Origin: an uncultured Nitrospiraceae bacterium
GTDB lineage: Bacteria > Nitrospirota > Nitrospiria > Nitrospirales > Nitrospiraceae
NCBI GenBank assembly: GCA_963730935.1
Contig: CAVSTP010000004.1
Coordinates: forward strand, 448,001 to 512,000
Length of the DNA: 64,000 nucleotides
Direction of reading: 5' to 3'
Of the stretch, positions 44,850-56,780 are shown piece by piece. The translations under genes and the position numbers were made by a program. A model generated the notes under the pieces. The model saw nothing but the letters and a program-made list of their open reading frames with translations. It was not told the origin of the DNA and made no database searches. Within the stretch, counting starts at the first letter, position 1. Each line of letters opens with the position of its first letter.

Positions 44850-46916
44850 ATGTCGAAGAAGCAGACGTCCGCTCTTGTGTCCGCCTCCCGTCCGACAGCT
44901 CCGGAACCAGCCGTCCAAAAGAAACCGCCGCAACAGCAGATCACCGCGGTGGAAATGGGTGCGCGGCAGCGGGAAATTTCCGTTTCGGAATTCTTCACCA
45001 AAAACCGGCATCTGCTCGGCTTCGACAATCCTCGCAAGGCGCTGCTCACCTGCGTCAAAGAAGCAGTTGATAATGCCCTGGATGCCTGTGAAGAGGCCGG
45101 CATCCTGCCGGATGTCAGCGTAAAGTTGGAAGTGGTCTCGAACGGGGAACCGATCGCGCCCAGCCAGGCCAGCAAATTCCGCATCACGGTCACCGATAAT
45201 GGGCCGGGCATCATCCGCCAGCACATTCCCCGCATTTTTGCCAAACTGCTCTACGGCTCAAAGTTCCACCGGATGCGGATGAGCCGCGGTCAACAGGGAA
45301 TCGGAATTTCCGCGGCGGGCATGTATGGCCAGCTGACAACGGGCAAACCGGTCAAGATCATTTCCCGGACGAGCCCGAGAGCTGCCGCGCATTTTTTCGA
45401 AGTCCAGATCGATACCAAGAAAAACGAACCACTGGTGCATGAAAACAAGCAGATCGAGTGGGAGCAGGCGCAAGGGACACAAGTCACGTTGGAGGTCGAA
45501 GGAAAATATCAGAAGGGGCGCGCGTCGGTCGACGAGTGGCTCGAACAAACGACCATTGCGAACGCCCATGTACGGCTCGTGTACCACACGCCGGAAGGCG
45601 AGACAAAGGAATACGCCCGGACGTATCACGAACTGCCACCTTCGCCGCGGGAGATCAAACCGCACCCCTACGGCATCGAATTCGGGATGCTGCTCAAGAT
45701 GCTGCAGGATACGAAAAGTCAAACAGTGTCAGGTTTCCTCGCCGGTGATTTCTGCCGGGTCTCTCCTCTACTGGCGACCGACATCTGCAAGGAAGCCAAG
45801 GTGTCCCCTCACCTCAAGCCTCGCGACCTCAAGGGAACTGCTGCGGAAACGCTGTATAGGACGATTCAGAACACCAAGATTATGGCGCCTCCGACGAATT
45901 GCCTTTCCCCCATCGGCGAAAAGGCGATTCTGTCCGGTCTCTACAAACAGATCAAAGGTGAATTCTACACAGCGGTCAGCCGGCCGCCGGCCGTCTACCG
46001 CGGCAACCCGTTCGTCATCGAAGCAGGATTGGCTTTCGGCAATCGGCCGGGTCAACAGACGAAGCCGGAGCAGCCCGCCGGGCCACGAGCGGAAGGGGAG
46101 GAAAAAGACGTCGACGCGGAACTCGCGAGGGTCATCCGGTATGCGAACCGCGTACCCCTCCTGTATCAGCAATCGGCCTGCGCAACGTTCAAAGCCGCGT
46201 TGAACACGACCTGGAAAAATTACGGCGTGCCGCAATCGCGCGGGGCCTTGCCCGCAGGACCGATGGTGATTTTTGTCCATATGGCGTCCGTCTGGGTGCC
46301 CTTCACCAGCGAATCGAAGGAAGCCATTGCCGATTACGACGAGATTCAAAAGGAAATCACCCTCGCCCTCCGCGAATGCGGCAGGCGCCTCGGATTGTTC
46401 CTCCGACGCCGGGAACGGGCGGCCAGCGAGTACCGGCGGCGCAACATTTTCGAATTGTACATCGAGGAAGTCGTCGAAGCCTGCAACCGGCTCAAGGGGG
46501 GGAAGCTCGTTAAAGAGAAGGTCAAAATGCAGCTCCAGAAGATCGCGAACTCACGCACCGGCGGCAGTAAAACCGATGACGCGCTGGGCAAGACGGGCGG
46601 TGGTCCGGAAGGGTTGCCCCATTCCATTATCGTCACCGACGAAGGCATCGAAGGCGAAGTGACAGCGCCCTCTCAGGTCGAAGCGGCAGACGAGACGGCC
46701 GGTCCAGGAGAAAGCGATCTCCTTGGCGCACCCGCAGCTCCCGCGCCCAAGTCACGGAAATCTGCCCACAAGAGGACGAGATCTCACCAGAGTCATACGA
46801 CTGGGCCACGCCGCAAGAGCGATCAGATGGCCTTGTTCGACAAGCGTGCCGACGCCACATCCAAAAGGAAGGGGGTGGACCGCTCAAAACCGAAGACGGC
46901 CCATCGCAAGAAATAG
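44850..46916 (+). CDS. top6B: DNA topoisomerase VI subunit B
   Basis: ISVSEFF, GHKL EAVDNALDACEEAGILP, DNGPGI, LLYGSKF, SRGQQGIGIS, PHPYG, RYANRVPLLY, VPFTSESKE. Confidence 0.95.
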   Translation: MSKKQTSALVSASRPTAPEPAVQKKPPQQQITAVEMGARQREISVSEFFTKNRHLLGFDNPRKALLTCVKEAVDNALDACEEAGILPDVSVKLEVVSNGEPIAPSQASKFRITVTDNGPGIIRQHIPRIFAKLLYGSKFHRMRMSRGQQGIGISAAGMYGQLTTGKPVKIISRTSPRAAAHFFEVQIDTKKNEPLVHENKQIEWEQAQGTQVTLEVEGKYQKGRASVDEWLEQTTIANAHVRLVYHTPEGETKEYARTYHELPPSPREIKPHPYGIEFGMLLKMLQDTKSQTVSGFLAGDFCRVSPLLATDICKEAKVSPHLKPRDLKGTAAETLYRTIQNTKIMAPPTNCLSPIGEKAILSGLYKQIKGEFYTAVSRPPAVYRGNPFVIEAGLAFGNRPGQQTKPEQPAGPRAEGEEKDVDAELARVIRYANRVPLLYQQSACATFKAALNTTWKNYGVPQSRGALPAGPMVIFVHMASVWVPFTSESKEAIADYDEIQKEITLALRECGRRLGLFLRRRERAASEYRRRNIFELYIEEVVEACNRLKGGKLVKEKVKMQLQKIANSRTGGSKTDDALGKTGGGPEGLPHSIIVTDEGIEGEVTAPSQVEAADETAGPGESDLLGAPAAPAPKSRKSAHKRTRSHQSHTTGPRRKSDQMALFDKRADATSKRKGVDRSKPKTAHRKK

Positions 46917-50253: not shown

Positions 50254-53200
50254 ATGCTGAAGGTTGTCACCGGCCGGTTCCATCCTTCCCTCGAATCCGC
50301 GCTCGTCGAACAGATCCGGCGCCTGAAAGCAGCCGACCCCTGGGCAAAGGTTGCGATTCTGGCTCCTTCCAAGCCGATCCTCGACCGACTCCGGCGGGTG
50401 CTGGCCATCGACCACGGGTTGTCGCTGCTGAATCTTCACCTCTTTACCTTTCACCAACTCGCCCTGCGGGTGGCCGATGAATTACGCAGCCGCTCCGGAC
50501 ATCCTCCGCTCCGTGTCGTCGATGGATTGTTCTTCGAGCACCTGGTGCGCCACCTCGTCGAACAACGGCTCGCCGAATCGCCGGCTCTCGGGCAATTGGG
50601 ACATTCGTTCGGAACCTGGGCCGCGCTCTGGGCGACGATCCGGGATCTCAAGGACGGAGGAGTCGATGCCGCTACAGCGCTGCAGGCACTTGGGGAAGGA
50701 TGCTTTGGTGGAGAGGATCAGGAATGGCTCCGCACGCTGTTTTCCCTTCAGGCGGCCGTCGAACAAGTCAGTGCTGACCTCGCCGTGGGCACGGCCGACG
50801 ATCTAGCCGACGCGCTCGTGGCCTCTGTAGCGGCGTCACAGTTTCTCGCCTCCATGCACCAGGTCTGCTACTACGGCTTCTATGATCTGACGCAGGTGCA
50901 GCTCTCGCTGTTTCAGGCCGTGAGCGCGAGCGTTTCCACGACGCTGTTCTTTCCCTTAGACAACCATCCATCGTTCGCGTTCGCCAGGCGCTTCTTCGAC
51001 CGCCACGTTCAGCCATTTCTGGGAGCAGATCCTCCCATACACCTCAATACGGTCGGGACAGGAACCCCGCCGCCGGAACTGTCGGTGCAGAGCGTCATCG
51101 GTCCCGAGGAGGAGTTGTCTGCCACCTGTCGGACCATTCTCGATCTGGTTGAGACACACGGATACCGCTTTGACGAGATCGGCGTGGTCGCACGCACACT
51201 GGCCCCTTACTGCACCCTCGTGCAATCGGTGTTCAACCGTCATCGCATCCCGGTGACCACGACGGCACGACGGCCGCTCATCCACCACCCGCTGTGCAAG
51301 ACCGTCCTGCTGTTGGCGGCGCTGCCCGTGAATGATTTCTATCGCACCGCCGTGCTCGACCTCGTGACCTCACCCTTCTTTGCCAAACCCGTGCTTGGTC
51401 GCAGCGGCTATTCAACAGCCTATCGGCCCGAGCAGTGGAAAGCGATCGTCGAGGCCTTGAACATCACGCATGGGCTCGATGAATGGAAGCGGTTAGAGCG
51501 TGCCTCTCAGTCCGCCCTTGAACTGGACGGTGACGGCGATGAGATAGGAGCGCTCGGCCCATTGGAGGTGACGCCGGAAGTAATCGCCGTACTGTGGAGC
51601 ACCGTGTCTCGACTTCTGACCTCTTGCTCAGCGCTACCTGCCCAAGGCCCGTACGGTACGTTGCTCGAAGCCTTTCAGTTCCTGTTGCAGGAACAGCTTC
51701 GGCGGGCGGATGACGGGCGAGATGGACTCGACAACGAGCCCGGTGGTTTGTCCGCAGTGTGGGAGGCTATCGATCAGACAGTGCGCAGGCTCGGCGAACT
51801 CACCGCCATCCGCCGTGAGCTCACGTGGGCTGATTTTTCCGACTTGCTGACCCATGCATTCGAGCGCGCAAGCGTTCCGCTGGAACAGGCGTCTACCCAG
51901 AGCGTCATATTCAGCGACGCGATGGCGGCACGAGGGCTCTCGTTTAGAGCGTTGTTCGTGCTCGGTCTCAACGAGAAAGTGTTTCCCCGGTACATTCGTG
52001 AAGATCCGTTTCTTCGTGATCGGCACCGTCTCGTGCTGGAAACGACGCTCGGATACAAGGTCGACGAAAAGCTCTCGGGTTACGACGAAGAGGCCTTGCT
52101 ATTCAGATTGCTCACCCAGGCGGCTGGACGGCGGTTGTATCTCTCGTTCCAGCGTGCCGACGATGCCGGACGGATGTTGGCGCCCTCACCCTATGTCGGC
52201 GAGGCGCGGCAGTCGGATGGAATGCCTCCGCCGCCCATGGACATGGTCCCGCGCCGTCTCACGGAGCGGCTCGCCCAGCGGCCAGTGATGAGCCGGTTTC
52301 TCCCGCCGGCAGAGCTCGCGCAGTGGATGGCAGTCAACGGCAAAGATGCTGCCGGTCTTCTCGAAGCCACAGGAGGTGACGCCGTCACGTTTCGCGAAGG
52401 CACCGAGGCGCTGGCCCGCACCGAGACCGACCAACAGGCCCTGACGGCCTTCGACGGCCTGACGGGCTCTCTGGAGACCCACTGGGTATCGCTCGAGGAG
52501 CGTGGCATCGCCCCAACCCCGCTGGAGCGGTATGCCCGCTGTCCGTTCCGCTATTTCTCCGCCGACGTACTGCGACTCGAACCGGTCCGTGCCCACGGCT
52601 CGGATGAACCGGACGTGCGTGTGCTCGGCACCTTTTGTCATAGCGCCTTGCGACGGTGCTATGAATTGCTGCTGCCCACCGGATGGCCGGAAAAACCCGT
52701 GACCGACGATACGATCGATTGGTGCATTGAGAGCGCCATCGAGGAGGCGGCCGCCGATGTCGAACGGGACCATCGAACGGGCCATTATCTCCTCTGGGAA
52801 CTCGCAAAGACCTCGATTCTTGATGTGATGACAGCCGCTGTCGATGACGATACACGCGCCTATCGCGACGCCCCCTTCGCGCCGGTCGCGTTCGAGGTCC
52901 TGGCGGAGGGTGCCATCACCGATGTCCCAGGCTGCGGATCGACGCCCCTGAAAATCCGGGGACGCGTGGATCGTGTCGACCGCCATCGCGACAGCCGAGC
53001 GCTCCGCATCATCGATTACAAACTGAAGATAGGAAAATCCATCACGTCTGAAGATCGGCACCTTGTTCAATCCGCCGCACGCGGCTATCGGCTGCAACCG
53101 CCTCTGTATGCCCGGCTCCATATTCCCGATCATGGCAACGCGCAACAGGTACAACTCTTCTTTCTTGCCCCCAACTGGGCGACTCCTGTCGTGCGTTCAA

Positions 53201-53436
53201 CCTTTGAAACCGATGTCTGGTCAACGGACAACGGTACCTTGCTCCGCAATACCCTCGGCCAACTGATGAACGGCATTAAGAACGGCAGGTTTTTCATCAT
53301 GCCGGGCACCTATTGCCAGACATGCGAATATCGCGTCGCCTGCCGCCGCGAGCACATGCCGACGTCGTGGCGCGCCTCTCGAACGATGGAAGCGAGAGCG
53401 TTGGCGGCCTTACGAACCCTGCGGGTCGACCGATGA
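50254..53436 (+). CDS. addB: AddB/RexB-like subunit: inactive helicase fold plus Fe-S PD-(D/E)XK nuclease
   Basis: ARGLSFRALFVLGLNE, PTPLERYARCPFRYF, RGRVDRVD, IIDYK, CQTCEYRVAC. Confidence 0.8.
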   Translation: MLKVVTGRFHPSLESALVEQIRRLKAADPWAKVAILAPSKPILDRLRRVLAIDHGLSLLNLHLFTFHQLALRVADELRSRSGHPPLRVVDGLFFEHLVRHLVEQRLAESPALGQLGHSFGTWAALWATIRDLKDGGVDAATALQALGEGCFGGEDQEWLRTLFSLQAAVEQVSADLAVGTADDLADALVASVAASQFLASMHQVCYYGFYDLTQVQLSLFQAVSASVSTTLFFPLDNHPSFAFARRFFDRHVQPFLGADPPIHLNTVGTGTPPPELSVQSVIGPEEELSATCRTILDLVETHGYRFDEIGVVARTLAPYCTLVQSVFNRHRIPVTTTARRPLIHHPLCKTVLLLAALPVNDFYRTAVLDLVTSPFFAKPVLGRSGYSTAYRPEQWKAIVEALNITHGLDEWKRLERASQSALELDGDGDEIGALGPLEVTPEVIAVLWSTVSRLLTSCSALPAQGPYGTLLEAFQFLLQEQLRRADDGRDGLDNEPGGLSAVWEAIDQTVRRLGELTAIRRELTWADFSDLLTHAFERASVPLEQASTQSVIFSDAMAARGLSFRALFVLGLNEKVFPRYIREDPFLRDRHRLVLETTLGYKVDEKLSGYDEEALLFRLLTQAAGRRLYLSFQRADDAGRMLAPSPYVGEARQSDGMPPPPMDMVPRRLTERLAQRPVMSRFLPPAELAQWMAVNGKDAAGLLEATGGDAVTFREGTEALARTETDQQALTAFDGLTGSLETHWVSLEERGIAPTPLERYARCPFRYFSADVLRLEPVRAHGSDEPDVRVLGTFCHSALRRCYELLLPTGWPEKPVTDDTIDWCIESAIEEAAADVERDHRTGHYLLWELAKTSILDVMTAAVDDDTRAYRDAPFAPVAFEVLAEGAITDVPGCGSTPLKIRGRVDRVDRHRDSRALRIIDYKLKIGKSITSEDRHLVQSAARGYRLQPPLYARLHIPDHGNAQQVQLFFLAPNWATPVVRSTFETDVWSTDNGTLLRNTLGQLMNGIKNGRFFIMPGTYCQTCEYRVACRREHMPTSWRASRTMEARALAALRTLRVDR

Positions 53437-56400
53437 GCAGCCGTGCACCGATCTCGGATCAGGACGCCCGTCGCGCGGCGGAAACCACGTTCGATCGAAA
53501 CGTCGTCGTCGTGGCCGGTGCCGGCACAGGAAAAACCACCCTGCTCGTGAACCGCCTGATCCACCTTCTCATGAGAGAACCCCAGCCGGTGGCGATTACC
53601 CATACCGTCGCATTGACGTATACCAATAAGGCAGCCACGGAGATGAAGGTCCGGCTTCGTGAACGGCTGACCGCCCTCAAGCGCGCGTCGACGGGGGACT
53701 TTCAAGCGTCCGATGGCGGAGCCATTGCCATGGACGAGGTGCGCACGCACTACAACCTCACAGCAGAGGACATCGCGACACGCGCCGAGGCGGCGCTGCG
53801 CGATCTGGAAAAGGCGCAAATCGGGACGGTCCACAGCTTCGCCGCCCATCTGCTGCGCCTCTTTCCGCTGGAGGCCGGTGTGGACCCCGCCTTCCGAGAG
53901 GATGACGGCCTCCGGTTCGACGAATCCTTCCAGCTCGCATGGGACGTCTGGATCGATCGTGAGCTCGGTCGCGAAGGCGTCCAGCACTCCCGCTGGCGAA
54001 CACTCTTGCAATCGACGACTCTGGAGCAGCTGCGTGGACTCGCCTATGCGCTGTGCAATGATCTCATCGATCTCGACGTGCTGTTCCGTCAGGTCGGTTC
54101 AGCACCCGACCAGGCCCTCACGGACTGGATCGGCAGCCTGCGTGACCGGGCGCAGACGTTGTTGGACTCCAACGACCGACCGACGCGGCGCAAGATCGAG
54201 CACATGCTGGCAGGAGCCGTTGCTCTCCTCACGCTCCTGAAAGACAAAGGGCCTCAATCCATCGATGAACTCGATCATTCCGCACGGGAATGGCTCGAAA
54301 AGGACCCGGGCCTGGCAATCAGCGATTGGAGCGCTCACGAGTTCACCCAAGCAGTTACAGTCGTGAAAATAGCGCAGCAAATGCTGATGCTTAACGATGC
54401 ATACTTCATCAATCTGTTGACCCTGATCAGCCCCCTTGTTACCTCTATCAGGTCTACCCTCGCGCGAACCGGGTGGATTTCATTCGACGGATTATTGGCC
54501 CGTGCCAGGAGGCTTCTTTGGGACCATCCGGACGTCAGGGAACGGATCAAGCGCGAGTATCGCGCCATCCTGATCGATGAGTTTCAGGACACGGATCCTG
54601 TCCAATACGAAATCCTCCTGGCTCTCGCCGAAGCGTCGGGGCGTGCATCCATGACCTGGCAAGCCATGGTGCTCGAACCAGGAAAGCTGTTCATCGTCGG
54701 TGATCCCAAGCAGTCGATCTATGCCTTTCGCCGGGCCGACATGGAAGCCTTCGATCGCGTGGTCGACAAGGTGCTTGCGGATGGGGGAACGCTGTACAGT
54801 CTGACCACCAACTTTCGAAGCGATGCAAGCATTCTTGGACCGGTTAATGACGTGTTCGACCGGCTCCTTCTCCGGCAACCGCTGGTCCAACCGGGCAATG
54901 TGCGTCTTCAAGGCGACGCTCGGCGAACGGGAAACCTTACCGAAACCGGCGTGATGATCCAAGTCACAGCACCGGCGGCAGGTGACGATCCCTTCGATGC
55001 AGCAGGGGCGGCCAGAGCGGAAGGAGAAGTGCTGGCCCGCTGGTTGCGCGAGGAGCTGCTCACTCGGCCCGGTGTCTCCGCCGGTCAGGTGGCATTCCTG
55101 TTTCGAAAATTGACGCAGGCCGACGGGTATCTGGACGCCCTTCGACGCTACAACATTCCCTACCTTATAGAAGGGGAGAAACATTACTATCGCCGCCAGG
55201 AAGTCATCGATCTCGTCAACATCCTTCGGGTGCTCGACCATCCGCATGATCACATCGCGCTTCTGGGAGTCCTGCGTTCGCCGCTCGGCAGCCTGACGGA
55301 TCGGGACATTTACGATCTTCGTGAGGCCGGCGGCTTCGGCGATCTGAACGAGAACACTGTCCACGCATGGTCCCATGCTCGAGCAGAGACGGTTCGACGT
55401 CTGTATCGTCGCCTGGGCTCGCTGCATCGTATGGTGACGGCACTTCCGCTGGATGAAGCCATTCAAGTGGTGTTCGATCAGTTCCCGCTGCTGGAGCTGG
55501 CGGCGGCCTCTCTGCACGGGGAGCAGGCCGTCGCCAATCTGCTCAAGGTCAAACAGACGGCCGCGTCGCTCGCCGATCGACCGCAGCTCACATTGAGCCG
55601 CTTTATCGAAGTGATGATGACCAGATTGGATGAGCAGCCGGATGAAGCGGAAAGTCCGCTGGCAGAGGATTCGTCCGACGCAGTGCAGATTTTGACGATT
55701 CACAAGGCCAAGGGTCTTGAGTTTCCCATCGTCGTGCTTCCGGGTCTTCACCAAGGCAGCGGACGGGACAAAGCAACGCCGACGGTGGTCTATGACTGGT
55801 CCACCGGCACCTATGGTCTTTCCGCAGGTTCGCATCAGACCCTCGGCTACCTGAGGGTGCAGGAGAAGCAGGTCGAACGGGAGAAAGCCGAGCGGCGCCG
55901 GGTCTTCTATGTGGGCATGACACGGGCGAAGGATCTCCTACTGCTCTCCGGCGGCCTGACCTCACGATCGGTCGGCGAAACGGTGCTTGAGTGGCTGAAC
56001 GAGATCGGCGAGGGAGAGATCGGGAATCCAGAGACGAAAACGGTAAAAATCGGATCAAGCGAAGTCGTGCATCGGGTCGTCCACGCACCGGAACGAAAAT
56101 GGCCCAGACGTGTGCCGGCAACGAGCGAGGACGGCCCCGCCGTCAATCCGGCGTCGCTTGCCCGATTGTGGGACGAACGGACGGCTCGATGGCAGACAGT
56201 GCGGGCCGGCACGTGGCATGTCACGCCGAGTTCCGTCAATGAGCGTCTCACGCTCAGCGACTTCGATTCCGCTCCTGGAGCCGGGGGACGCGACGTGAGC
56301 CGGCTCGTGGGAGTCATTGCACATCACATTCTCGAAGGATGGGACTTTGCCCGGCCACCCGACGAACTGCTGATGCGGATCGATCCCTCGCTTGAGCGGT

Positions 56401-56780
56401 TTCTCCCGCAAGAACTCAACGAGGTCCGATCGAAGGTCGCCGATTCGCTCACCGAGATTTTCACGACATTCAGCGCTTCCGAATCCTACGCCAGACTCAG
56501 TTCTGGCGCGATCTTGGGACGTGAGGTGCCCTTTGTCATGCCCTGGGGCGAACGGCAGGTCATGGAAGGAGTTATCGACGTGATCTACAGCCTTGACGGG
56601 AAGATCTGGATTGCGGACTATAAGACCGACCGGACTACGACATCCGAAGCGCCGGCGAGAGCCGAGTTGTATGCCCACCAGGCGGCAATCTATCGGGAAG
56701 CGGTGACCCGATGTCTAGGCCTGTCGCAGGCGTCCTTCCAATTTTTGTTTCTCCGAGCGGGCGTCAGCGTGGACCTGTGA
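53433..56780 (+). CDS. addA: AddA-like UvrD helicase with RecB-type nuclease
   Basis: AGAGTGKT, IDEFQDT, VGDPKQSIYAFR, TIHKAKGLEF, YVGMTRA, EGVID...ADYKT; ATGA overlap with addB. Confidence 0.88.
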   Translation: MSSRAPISDQDARRAAETTFDRNVVVVAGAGTGKTTLLVNRLIHLLMREPQPVAITHTVALTYTNKAATEMKVRLRERLTALKRASTGDFQASDGGAIAMDEVRTHYNLTAEDIATRAEAALRDLEKAQIGTVHSFAAHLLRLFPLEAGVDPAFREDDGLRFDESFQLAWDVWIDRELGREGVQHSRWRTLLQSTTLEQLRGLAYALCNDLIDLDVLFRQVGSAPDQALTDWIGSLRDRAQTLLDSNDRPTRRKIEHMLAGAVALLTLLKDKGPQSIDELDHSAREWLEKDPGLAISDWSAHEFTQAVTVVKIAQQMLMLNDAYFINLLTLISPLVTSIRSTLARTGWISFDGLLARARRLLWDHPDVRERIKREYRAILIDEFQDTDPVQYEILLALAEASGRASMTWQAMVLEPGKLFIVGDPKQSIYAFRRADMEAFDRVVDKVLADGGTLYSLTTNFRSDASILGPVNDVFDRLLLRQPLVQPGNVRLQGDARRTGNLTETGVMIQVTAPAAGDDPFDAAGAARAEGEVLARWLREELLTRPGVSAGQVAFLFRKLTQADGYLDALRRYNIPYLIEGEKHYYRRQEVIDLVNILRVLDHPHDHIALLGVLRSPLGSLTDRDIYDLREAGGFGDLNENTVHAWSHARAETVRRLYRRLGSLHRMVTALPLDEAIQVVFDQFPLLELAAASLHGEQAVANLLKVKQTAASLADRPQLTLSRFIEVMMTRLDEQPDEAESPLAEDSSDAVQILTIHKAKGLEFPIVVLPGLHQGSGRDKATPTVVYDWSTGTYGLSAGSHQTLGYLRVQEKQVEREKAERRRVFYVGMTRAKDLLLLSGGLTSRSVGETVLEWLNEIGEGEIGNPETKTVKIGSSEVVHRVVHAPERKWPRRVPATSEDGPAVNPASLARLWDERTARWQTVRAGTWHVTPSSVNERLTLSDFDSAPGAGGRDVSRLVGVIAHHILEGWDFARPPDELLMRIDPSLERFLPQELNEVRSKVADSLTEIFTTFSASESYARLSSGAILGREVPFVMPWGERQVMEGVIDVIYSLDGKIWIADYKTDRTTTSEAPARAELYAHQAAIYREAVTRCLGLSQASFQFLFLRAGVSVDL

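Follow-up and report, generated by a model that had tools for sequence, protein, structure and literature searches.

A predicted beta-clamp-binding motif in the C-terminal tail of a topoisomerase VI B subunit from Nitrospiraceae

The topoisomerase VI locus

The window analysed here, a stretch of 64,000 nucleotides from the genome of an uncultured Nitrospiraceae bacterium, contains adjacent genes for the two subunits of topoisomerase VI (Table 1). The B subunit, Top6B, matches the Pfam families HATPase_c (PF02518) and Topo-VIb_trans (PF09239, residues 347-528). The NCBIfam model TIGR01052 scores 505 bits (cut-off 380.7), and NF003218 is also above its cut-off. The ATPase motifs EAVDN, DNGPG and RGQQGIG are present, as is WKNY (WKxY). 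Top6A is matched above cut-off by PF04406, PF21180 and NF003333, and both a winged-helix and a Toprim part were found. The best solved relative of Top6B is the Methanosarcina mazei subunit (2q2e_B, E 4e-138, residues 33-531), and named relatives place the window's Top6B among Nitrospira-type sequences. Judged by these matches, the pair is an intact topoisomerase VI, a type IIB enzyme, and by analogy with the M. mazei enzyme it would carry out ATP-dependent strand passage and decatenation. A fusion of Top6B with Top6A, suggested by long open frames in four genomes (G009, G064, G104 and G146), was rejected, as Top6B there has a normal length and its own stop. Carriage of Top6B by plasmids was likewise rejected; five records matched, none of them over at least 80% of the query, and the three substantial ones are haloarchaeal.

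Table 1. Features of the topoisomerase VI locus and of its surroundings in the window
Feature	Position	Strand	Basis or remark
prfB	40481-39338	-	CTT TGA C at 40415-40409
top6B, topoisomerase VI subunit B of 688 aa, with GHKL ATPase, transducer and C-terminal tail	44850..46916	+	Pfam, NCBIfam, structure match
Conserved LPHSIIVTxEGxEG segment, LPHSIIVTDEGIEGE, residues 589-603	46614..46658	+	Alignment; short beta-hairpin predicted ahead of the tail
C-terminal tail, residues 607-688, predicted to be disordered	46668..46913	+	pLDDT <50; acidic to about residue 628, then Lys/Arg-rich
ESDLL, residues 621-625	46710..46724	+	A weaker hydrophobic spot, less conserved than QMALF; may be a degenerate clamp motif
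QMALF, residues 659-663, predicted beta-clamp-binding motif	46824..46838	+	Codons CAG ATG GCC TTG TTC
top6A, topoisomerase VI subunit A, 367 aa	46922..48025	+	Starts 5 bases past the top6B stop
PD-(D/E)XK nuclease gene	50254-53436	+	AddAB-like pair with the next gene
UvrD-helicase/nuclease gene	53313-56780	+	AddAB-like pair with the previous gene

The segment that precedes the tail is predicted to form a hairpin, with strands at residues 592-596 and 599-601 in an AlphaFold model built on a 63-sequence alignment. In the same model of Top6B, pLDDT falls below 50 for residues 607-680 and 682-688, and QMALF is left disordered and not docked in the monomer. An earlier note on this DNA had placed QMALF at residues 659-663 and described a tail that is acidic and then Lys/Arg-rich. 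Both points are borne out in an intact protein of 688 residues; residues 594-628 have nine Asp/Glu and no Lys/Arg, and residues 629-688 have 20 Lys/Arg, four Asp and the one Phe that the tail contains. The same note counted about 100 low-complexity residues, but the first 20 or so residues of its interval (to about 603) are conserved and partly ordered. It also saw a single hydrophobic island. QMALF is such an island, but the weaker spot ESDLL is conserved above chance. Spots of this type (xDLL) lie upstream of the main motif in 26 of 90 Nitrospiraceae tails (shuffle mean 2.2, maximum 7), two of the 26 being an eroded main motif, QLALL, and they read QTDLL or QADLL in a few orthologues.

Conservation of the motif within Nitrospiraceae

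A Top6B match was obtained in 107 of 151 Nitrospiraceae genomes, and the 90 that ranked highest (30 loci and 60 regions) supplied the tails; the count leaves aside the remaining 17 genomes, most of which have fragments. The pattern Qxx[LM]F, which was picked after inspection of the tails of genus g31 and is counted over kin that are not independent, occurs in 57 of the 90 tails, compared with a mean of 0.15 and a maximum of 2 in 2000 rounds of residue shuffling. The stricter Q[LMIV]xLF is found in 39 tails (shuffle mean 0.01, maximum 1, 2000 rounds), and genus g31 uses QQxLF or QQxMF in 15 of its 16 tails. Phe is rare elsewhere, with just nine among the 6892 tail residues outside the motif. 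When the window's own tail is shuffled, the strict pattern arises with a frequency of 8.5e-5 and the looser one with 1.8e-3. The motif is present in nine of the 17 genera sampled; with one representative for each of the nine, identity is 86% in the protein core and 31% in the tail without the motif. The earlier note had proposed to look for a conserved QxxLF amid otherwise divergent tails, and this is what the orthologues have; absence from orthologous tails, which it had named as evidence against its reading, is refuted.

The codons of the motif differ synonymously among 11 orthologues with QMALF, which rules out a constraint at the DNA or RNA level. The motif is internal in Nitrospiraceae, 14-41 residues from the C-terminal end. 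Taken as sequence evidence, these features indicate that the QMALF motif is under selection.

Retention of the motif is patchy. Qxx[LM]F is missing from 33 of the 90 tails, including 11 of 11 from genus g18 and the few tails of g5, g11, g25, g26, g34, g35 and g39, and it is eroded in part of g9 and g4. On a FastTree tree of 111 cores, where the label for the motif was broader than Qxx[LM]F (67 with, 44 without), 16 changes of motif state are needed, 12 of them forced by branches with support of at least 95. On this distribution the motif is maintained, with repeated losses or regains, and it is dispensable in many lineages. No relocated tag was found on GyrA C-terminal tails, on Top6A or on the N-terminal arm of Top6B in lineages without the motif or without Top6; the 41 Nitrospiraceae GyrA proteins examined have no C-terminal tag and three internal loose matches.

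Two side observations concern the gene itself. Top6B was not found in six of 17 genomes of g18, the genus in which the motif is missing from every tail, and is present in 18 of 18 genomes of g1 and g9; loss of the motif may come before loss of the gene. Six Top6B sequences (L039, L064, L034, L040, L136 and L157) are off their genus or phylum place on the tree, including two from g1 that group with g27/g4 and two from Rokubacteria/Methylomirabilota that group with basal Nitrospiraceae, which suggests transfer or binning errors.

Fit to the motif rules and to the host clamp

As set out in the available text of a review of clamp clients (PMC11139829), natural clamp motifs have the forms Q-phi-x-[LM]-[FL] and Q-phi-x-[LM]-x-[FL], with a tolerant position 2, a free position 3 and Leu-Phe as the anchor. 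Their flanks tend to be acidic, and the surround of the pocket is basic. QMALF fits the pentamer consensus if Met is allowed at the aliphatic second position, where many orthologues have Leu or Ile. The orthologue series obeys the same rules; the Gln is fixed, position 3 is free, and Leu or Met is followed by Phe or Leu. Both published forms, pentamer and hexamer, occur on bacterial Top6B tails, and two variants among the orthologues, QLALF and QLGLF, recur letter for letter as planctomycete MutS tags. The flanks of QMALF are Lys/Arg-rich and depart from the acidic tendency.

The genome of the window has 332 matches to the loose pattern in 4636 crude open reading frames, some of which are spurious, and the flanks of QMALF are the least hydrophobic of all 332. 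Tags of the same type are carried by an ImuB-like protein (QLSLF), MutS (QIDLF) and uracil-DNA glycosylase (QMDLF), and DnaE has a degenerate QTSIF. Three tagged proteins of this genome (G000) were noted as candidate DnaN clients: the uracil-DNA glycosylase, which ends in QMDLFG (C3:754487-755131, L291), a SprT-like protein with QLELDF near its end (C2:826844-827512, L293) and a radical SAM protein that ends in QTRLF (C4:963138-964187, L292). A perfect clamp-type pentamer also stands in QLGLFERSS, the C-terminal end of a PurF-like amidophosphoribosyltransferase (C3:587896-589326, L294). PurF is a metabolic enzyme, so a match alone is no proof of a role in DNA metabolism.

A single dnaN is present in this genome (C2:720004-721128, minus strand). 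The pocket residues of its product were located from motifs and spacing with reference to the E. coli residues given in the available text of PMC11139829, Val344 being left unmapped. R151, L154, T175, G177, H178, R179, L180, P251, V256, N329, Y332, V369, M371 and P372 are invariant in 29 of 29 DnaN sequences of the order. The equivalent of Arg246 is Gln in all 29, and that of Met364 is Ile, Met or Val. The Gln at the Arg246 position may ease the repulsion of basic flanks. The earlier note's reading of QMALF as a bacterial clamp-type motif is thus well supported by sequence, through conservation in 57 of 90 tails, synonymous variation, fit to the consensus and an intact DnaN pocket, and QMALF is probably a DnaN-binding motif.

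Top6B tails outside Nitrospiraceae

Within the phylum, 55 of 301 genomes gave a Top6B match, nearly all of them Nitrospiraceae. QAELF occurs in one genome outside the family (G380) and in one Nitrospiraceae genome (G012); the other genome outside the family, G387, has a short tail without the motif. A wider survey took the best 120 hits for each of three queries plus 80 named loci and kept distinct tails of at least 15 residues. Its groups were named from tree position and, for a minority of hits, from source labels, and its counts are to be read with patterns that were set after the tails had been inspected and with hit lists that are clusters of kin. Among the matches listed, Myxococcota-like proteins have a broad clamp-type pattern in 81 of 117 tails (shuffle mean 0.3); most of their tags are C-terminal and read QLKLI, QLDLV or QLSLI (QLxL[IVL] or similar). 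The five Binatia-like tails listed all have a hexamer, QMSLGF in three, QLSLGL in one (L129, from genome G427, flagged unpublished) and QAVLPF in one. Phycisphaerae-like matches end in LF in 109 of the 111 tails listed and have Qxx[LM]F in 17 of them, and the corresponding counts for the other named Planctomycetota listed are 23 and 4 of 26. A conserved segment of the KPKMRLVNGKLVPV type lies just before the terminal LF in 87 of the 111 Phycisphaerae-like tails (P0401-P0519) and is a possible second binding element.

Rokubacteria/Methylomirabilota-like tails have the motif in none of the 102 listed, though they are Lys/Ala-rich, and Elusimicrobia proteins have a basic tail without the motif. 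The earlier note had supposed that the motif and the basic tail were gained jointly. This part of its proposal did not hold; the basic tail is separable and more widespread, and its persistence in Rokubacteria-like proteins argues for separate acquisition of the two. On the tree the Rokubacteria-like sequences fall within the Binatia-like group, a placement that suggests loss. The Myxococcota-like and planctomycete proteins form separate clades whose tags differ in form and position, pointing to independent gains or to turnover. The idea that the Gln-less planctomycete tags are a local clamp dialect is not supported, since MutS uses the canonical QLxLF in five of five planctomycete genomes; the Gln-less Top6B tags are therefore weaker candidates. 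A distant unnamed Top6B, P0119, ends in the PIP-box-like QNTLDSYFG, the sole C-terminal case of this kind flagged among the 128 tails listed, and from this tail some archaeal-type Top6B proteins may bind PCNA.

Type II topoisomerases of the host

The genome of the window has one PF00521 gene (GyrA/ParC family) and one PF00204 gene (GyrB/ParE family), located beside dnaN, and on this gene content gyrase is present and Topo IV is absent. With gyrase as the only other type II enzyme, Topo VI is likely the decatenase. A PF00521 match is found in 138 of the 151 Nitrospiraceae genomes, nearly always one, and a Top6B match is missing in 44 of the 151, several of which are 99-100% complete; both tallies include G006 and G076, which are flagged unpublished. 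Single PF00521 matches are also found in five of five planctomycete and four of five Rokubacteria/Binatia-like genomes. The Nitrospiraceae genomes without Top6B mostly have one gene for a type IIA A subunit, so that gyrase by itself seems to be enough there and Topo VI is not needed everywhere.

This agrees with what is known of bacterial Topo VI. According to the available text of Allen and Maxwell 2024 (PMC11302465), Topo VI occurs in Nitrospiraceae and in 16 further families, Nitrospira has gyrase without Topo IV, bacterial Top6B is without the Ig-like domain, and the role of bacterial Topo VI is stated as open. M. mazei Topo VI is described, in the portions available, as a preferential decatenase that may clear precatenanes behind the fork (PMC8837201) and as slow and distributive, and a missing accessory factor for localisation or speed has been postulated (PMC5922973, PMC8837201).

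Proposed role of the motif and alternative readings

In the proposed mechanism QMALF would dock in the DnaN pocket, with Gln and Met in subsite II and Leu-Phe in subsite I. The A2B2 enzyme would thus have two disordered arms of about 80 residues, each docking on DnaN with one tag, and the basic flanks of the motif would probably hold DNA. Clamps persist behind bacterial forks. By marking newly replicated DNA, the clamp would gather a slow and distributive decatenase at the place where precatenanes and late catenanes form. The reading as a whole, an intact Topo VI with a tagged tail that is recruited by the clamp to new DNA, is given a probability of about 0.7. Whether the recruitment serves specifically the removal of precatenanes is evenly balanced. 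The earlier note spoke of a replisome-tethered Topo VI; its clamp-motif basis is supported, but clamp-recruited is the better wording. The tag would be an accessory improvement and not a requirement, since many lineages are without the motif.

The motif may instead bind DnaN for another purpose, such as bringing the enzyme to repair sites or stalled forks, relaxing positive supercoils near the fork, or confining an enzyme that makes double-strand breaks to clamp-loaded DNA. Other tagged proteins of the genome are repair or tolerance factors (uracil-DNA glycosylase, MutS and the ImuB-like and SprT-like proteins), and the patchy retention of the motif suits a non-essential role of this type. However, the genome is without Topo IV, Topo VI prefers catenanes, and the short flanks examined show no conserved grouping with repair genes, so that a purpose of this kind is considered unlikely.

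It has also to be considered that QxxLF binds a partner other than the clamp, for example a protease adaptor, an SMC-type protein or an autoinhibitory groove on Topo VI, the tail being mainly a basic DNA-binding arm. The basic flanks are atypical of clamp motifs, the basic tail is kept without the motif in Rokubacteria-like and Elusimicrobia proteins, and the Myxococcota-like and Phycisphaerae-like tags, the latter mostly Gln-less, stand at the very C-terminal end, as degrons also do. A partner of this kind is nevertheless improbable: the variation of the motif matches the published clamp rules in both pentamer and hexamer form, the motif has an internal position in Nitrospiraceae (14-41 residues from the end), and the monomer model leaves it disordered and undocked. 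A chance match in a low-complexity tail is scarcely credible. The loose five-residue pattern is common, as its 332 matches in the crude open reading frames show, but presence in 57 of 90 tails where shuffling never exceeds 2, occurrence in nine genera with tails that are 31% identical, and synonymous variation refute chance.

Comparison with known systems

The GHKL and transducer core and the adjacent top6A are shared with archaeal Top6B (M. mazei 2Q2E and the 9O0G series; S. shibatae 2ZBK and 1MX0). The match to M. mazei Top6B stops at residue 531-544, and the Ig-like C-terminal domain of that protein is replaced in the window by the short hairpin and the disordered charged tail with its clamp-type motif. 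The gyrase-without-Topo IV pattern of the window's genome is that of the bacterial Topo VI in the available text of PMC11302465, the main text of which has no PCNA and uses the word clamp once, for the GHKL clamp. With the known beta-clamp clients Pol II, Pol III alpha, Pol IV, Pol V, Hda and MutL, as far as these are covered in the available text of PMC11139829, Top6B shares the motif, its disordered site, the pattern of tolerance and the host pocket, but its flanks are basic and not acidic. The word topoisomerase is absent from that text, and in the available part of the partner table of PMC9690074 topoisomerases appear only as partners of PCNA. Eukaryotic Topo I and Topo II alpha are among those partners and are likewise clamp-linked topoisomerases; however, they belong to other enzyme families and use another clamp and another motif, and they serve as an analogy only.

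Neither Topo VI in Nitrospira nor the clamp motif is new in itself. Their combination, a clamp motif on Top6B, was not found described in the mostly open-access literature searched. The conserved motif names a candidate for the postulated missing Topo VI factor. More tentatively, with confidence that falls a little short of even, bacteria with Topo VI in place of Topo IV may have repeatedly fitted Top6B with clade-specific clamp tags: an internal pentamer in Nitrospiraceae, a hexamer in Binatia, a C-terminal QLxL[IVL] in Myxococcota and a degenerate LF in Planctomycetota. The clamp would then be the postulated missing factor for localisation or processivity, and Topo VI would be the first bacterial topoisomerase recruited directly by DnaN, unlinking sisters behind the fork. 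If this is true, a topoisomerase is added to the list of DnaN clients, and an archaeal-type enzyme has been wired into bacterial replication through a short motif that varies across several phyla. The orthologues without the motif are natural controls.

Other features of the window

Two features outside the topoisomerase genes were noted. The AddAB-like gene pair lies 2 kb past top6A. In prfB, the classic programmed +1 frameshift site CTT TGA C follows a stretch of 23 protein letters, with a purine-rich run just upstream.
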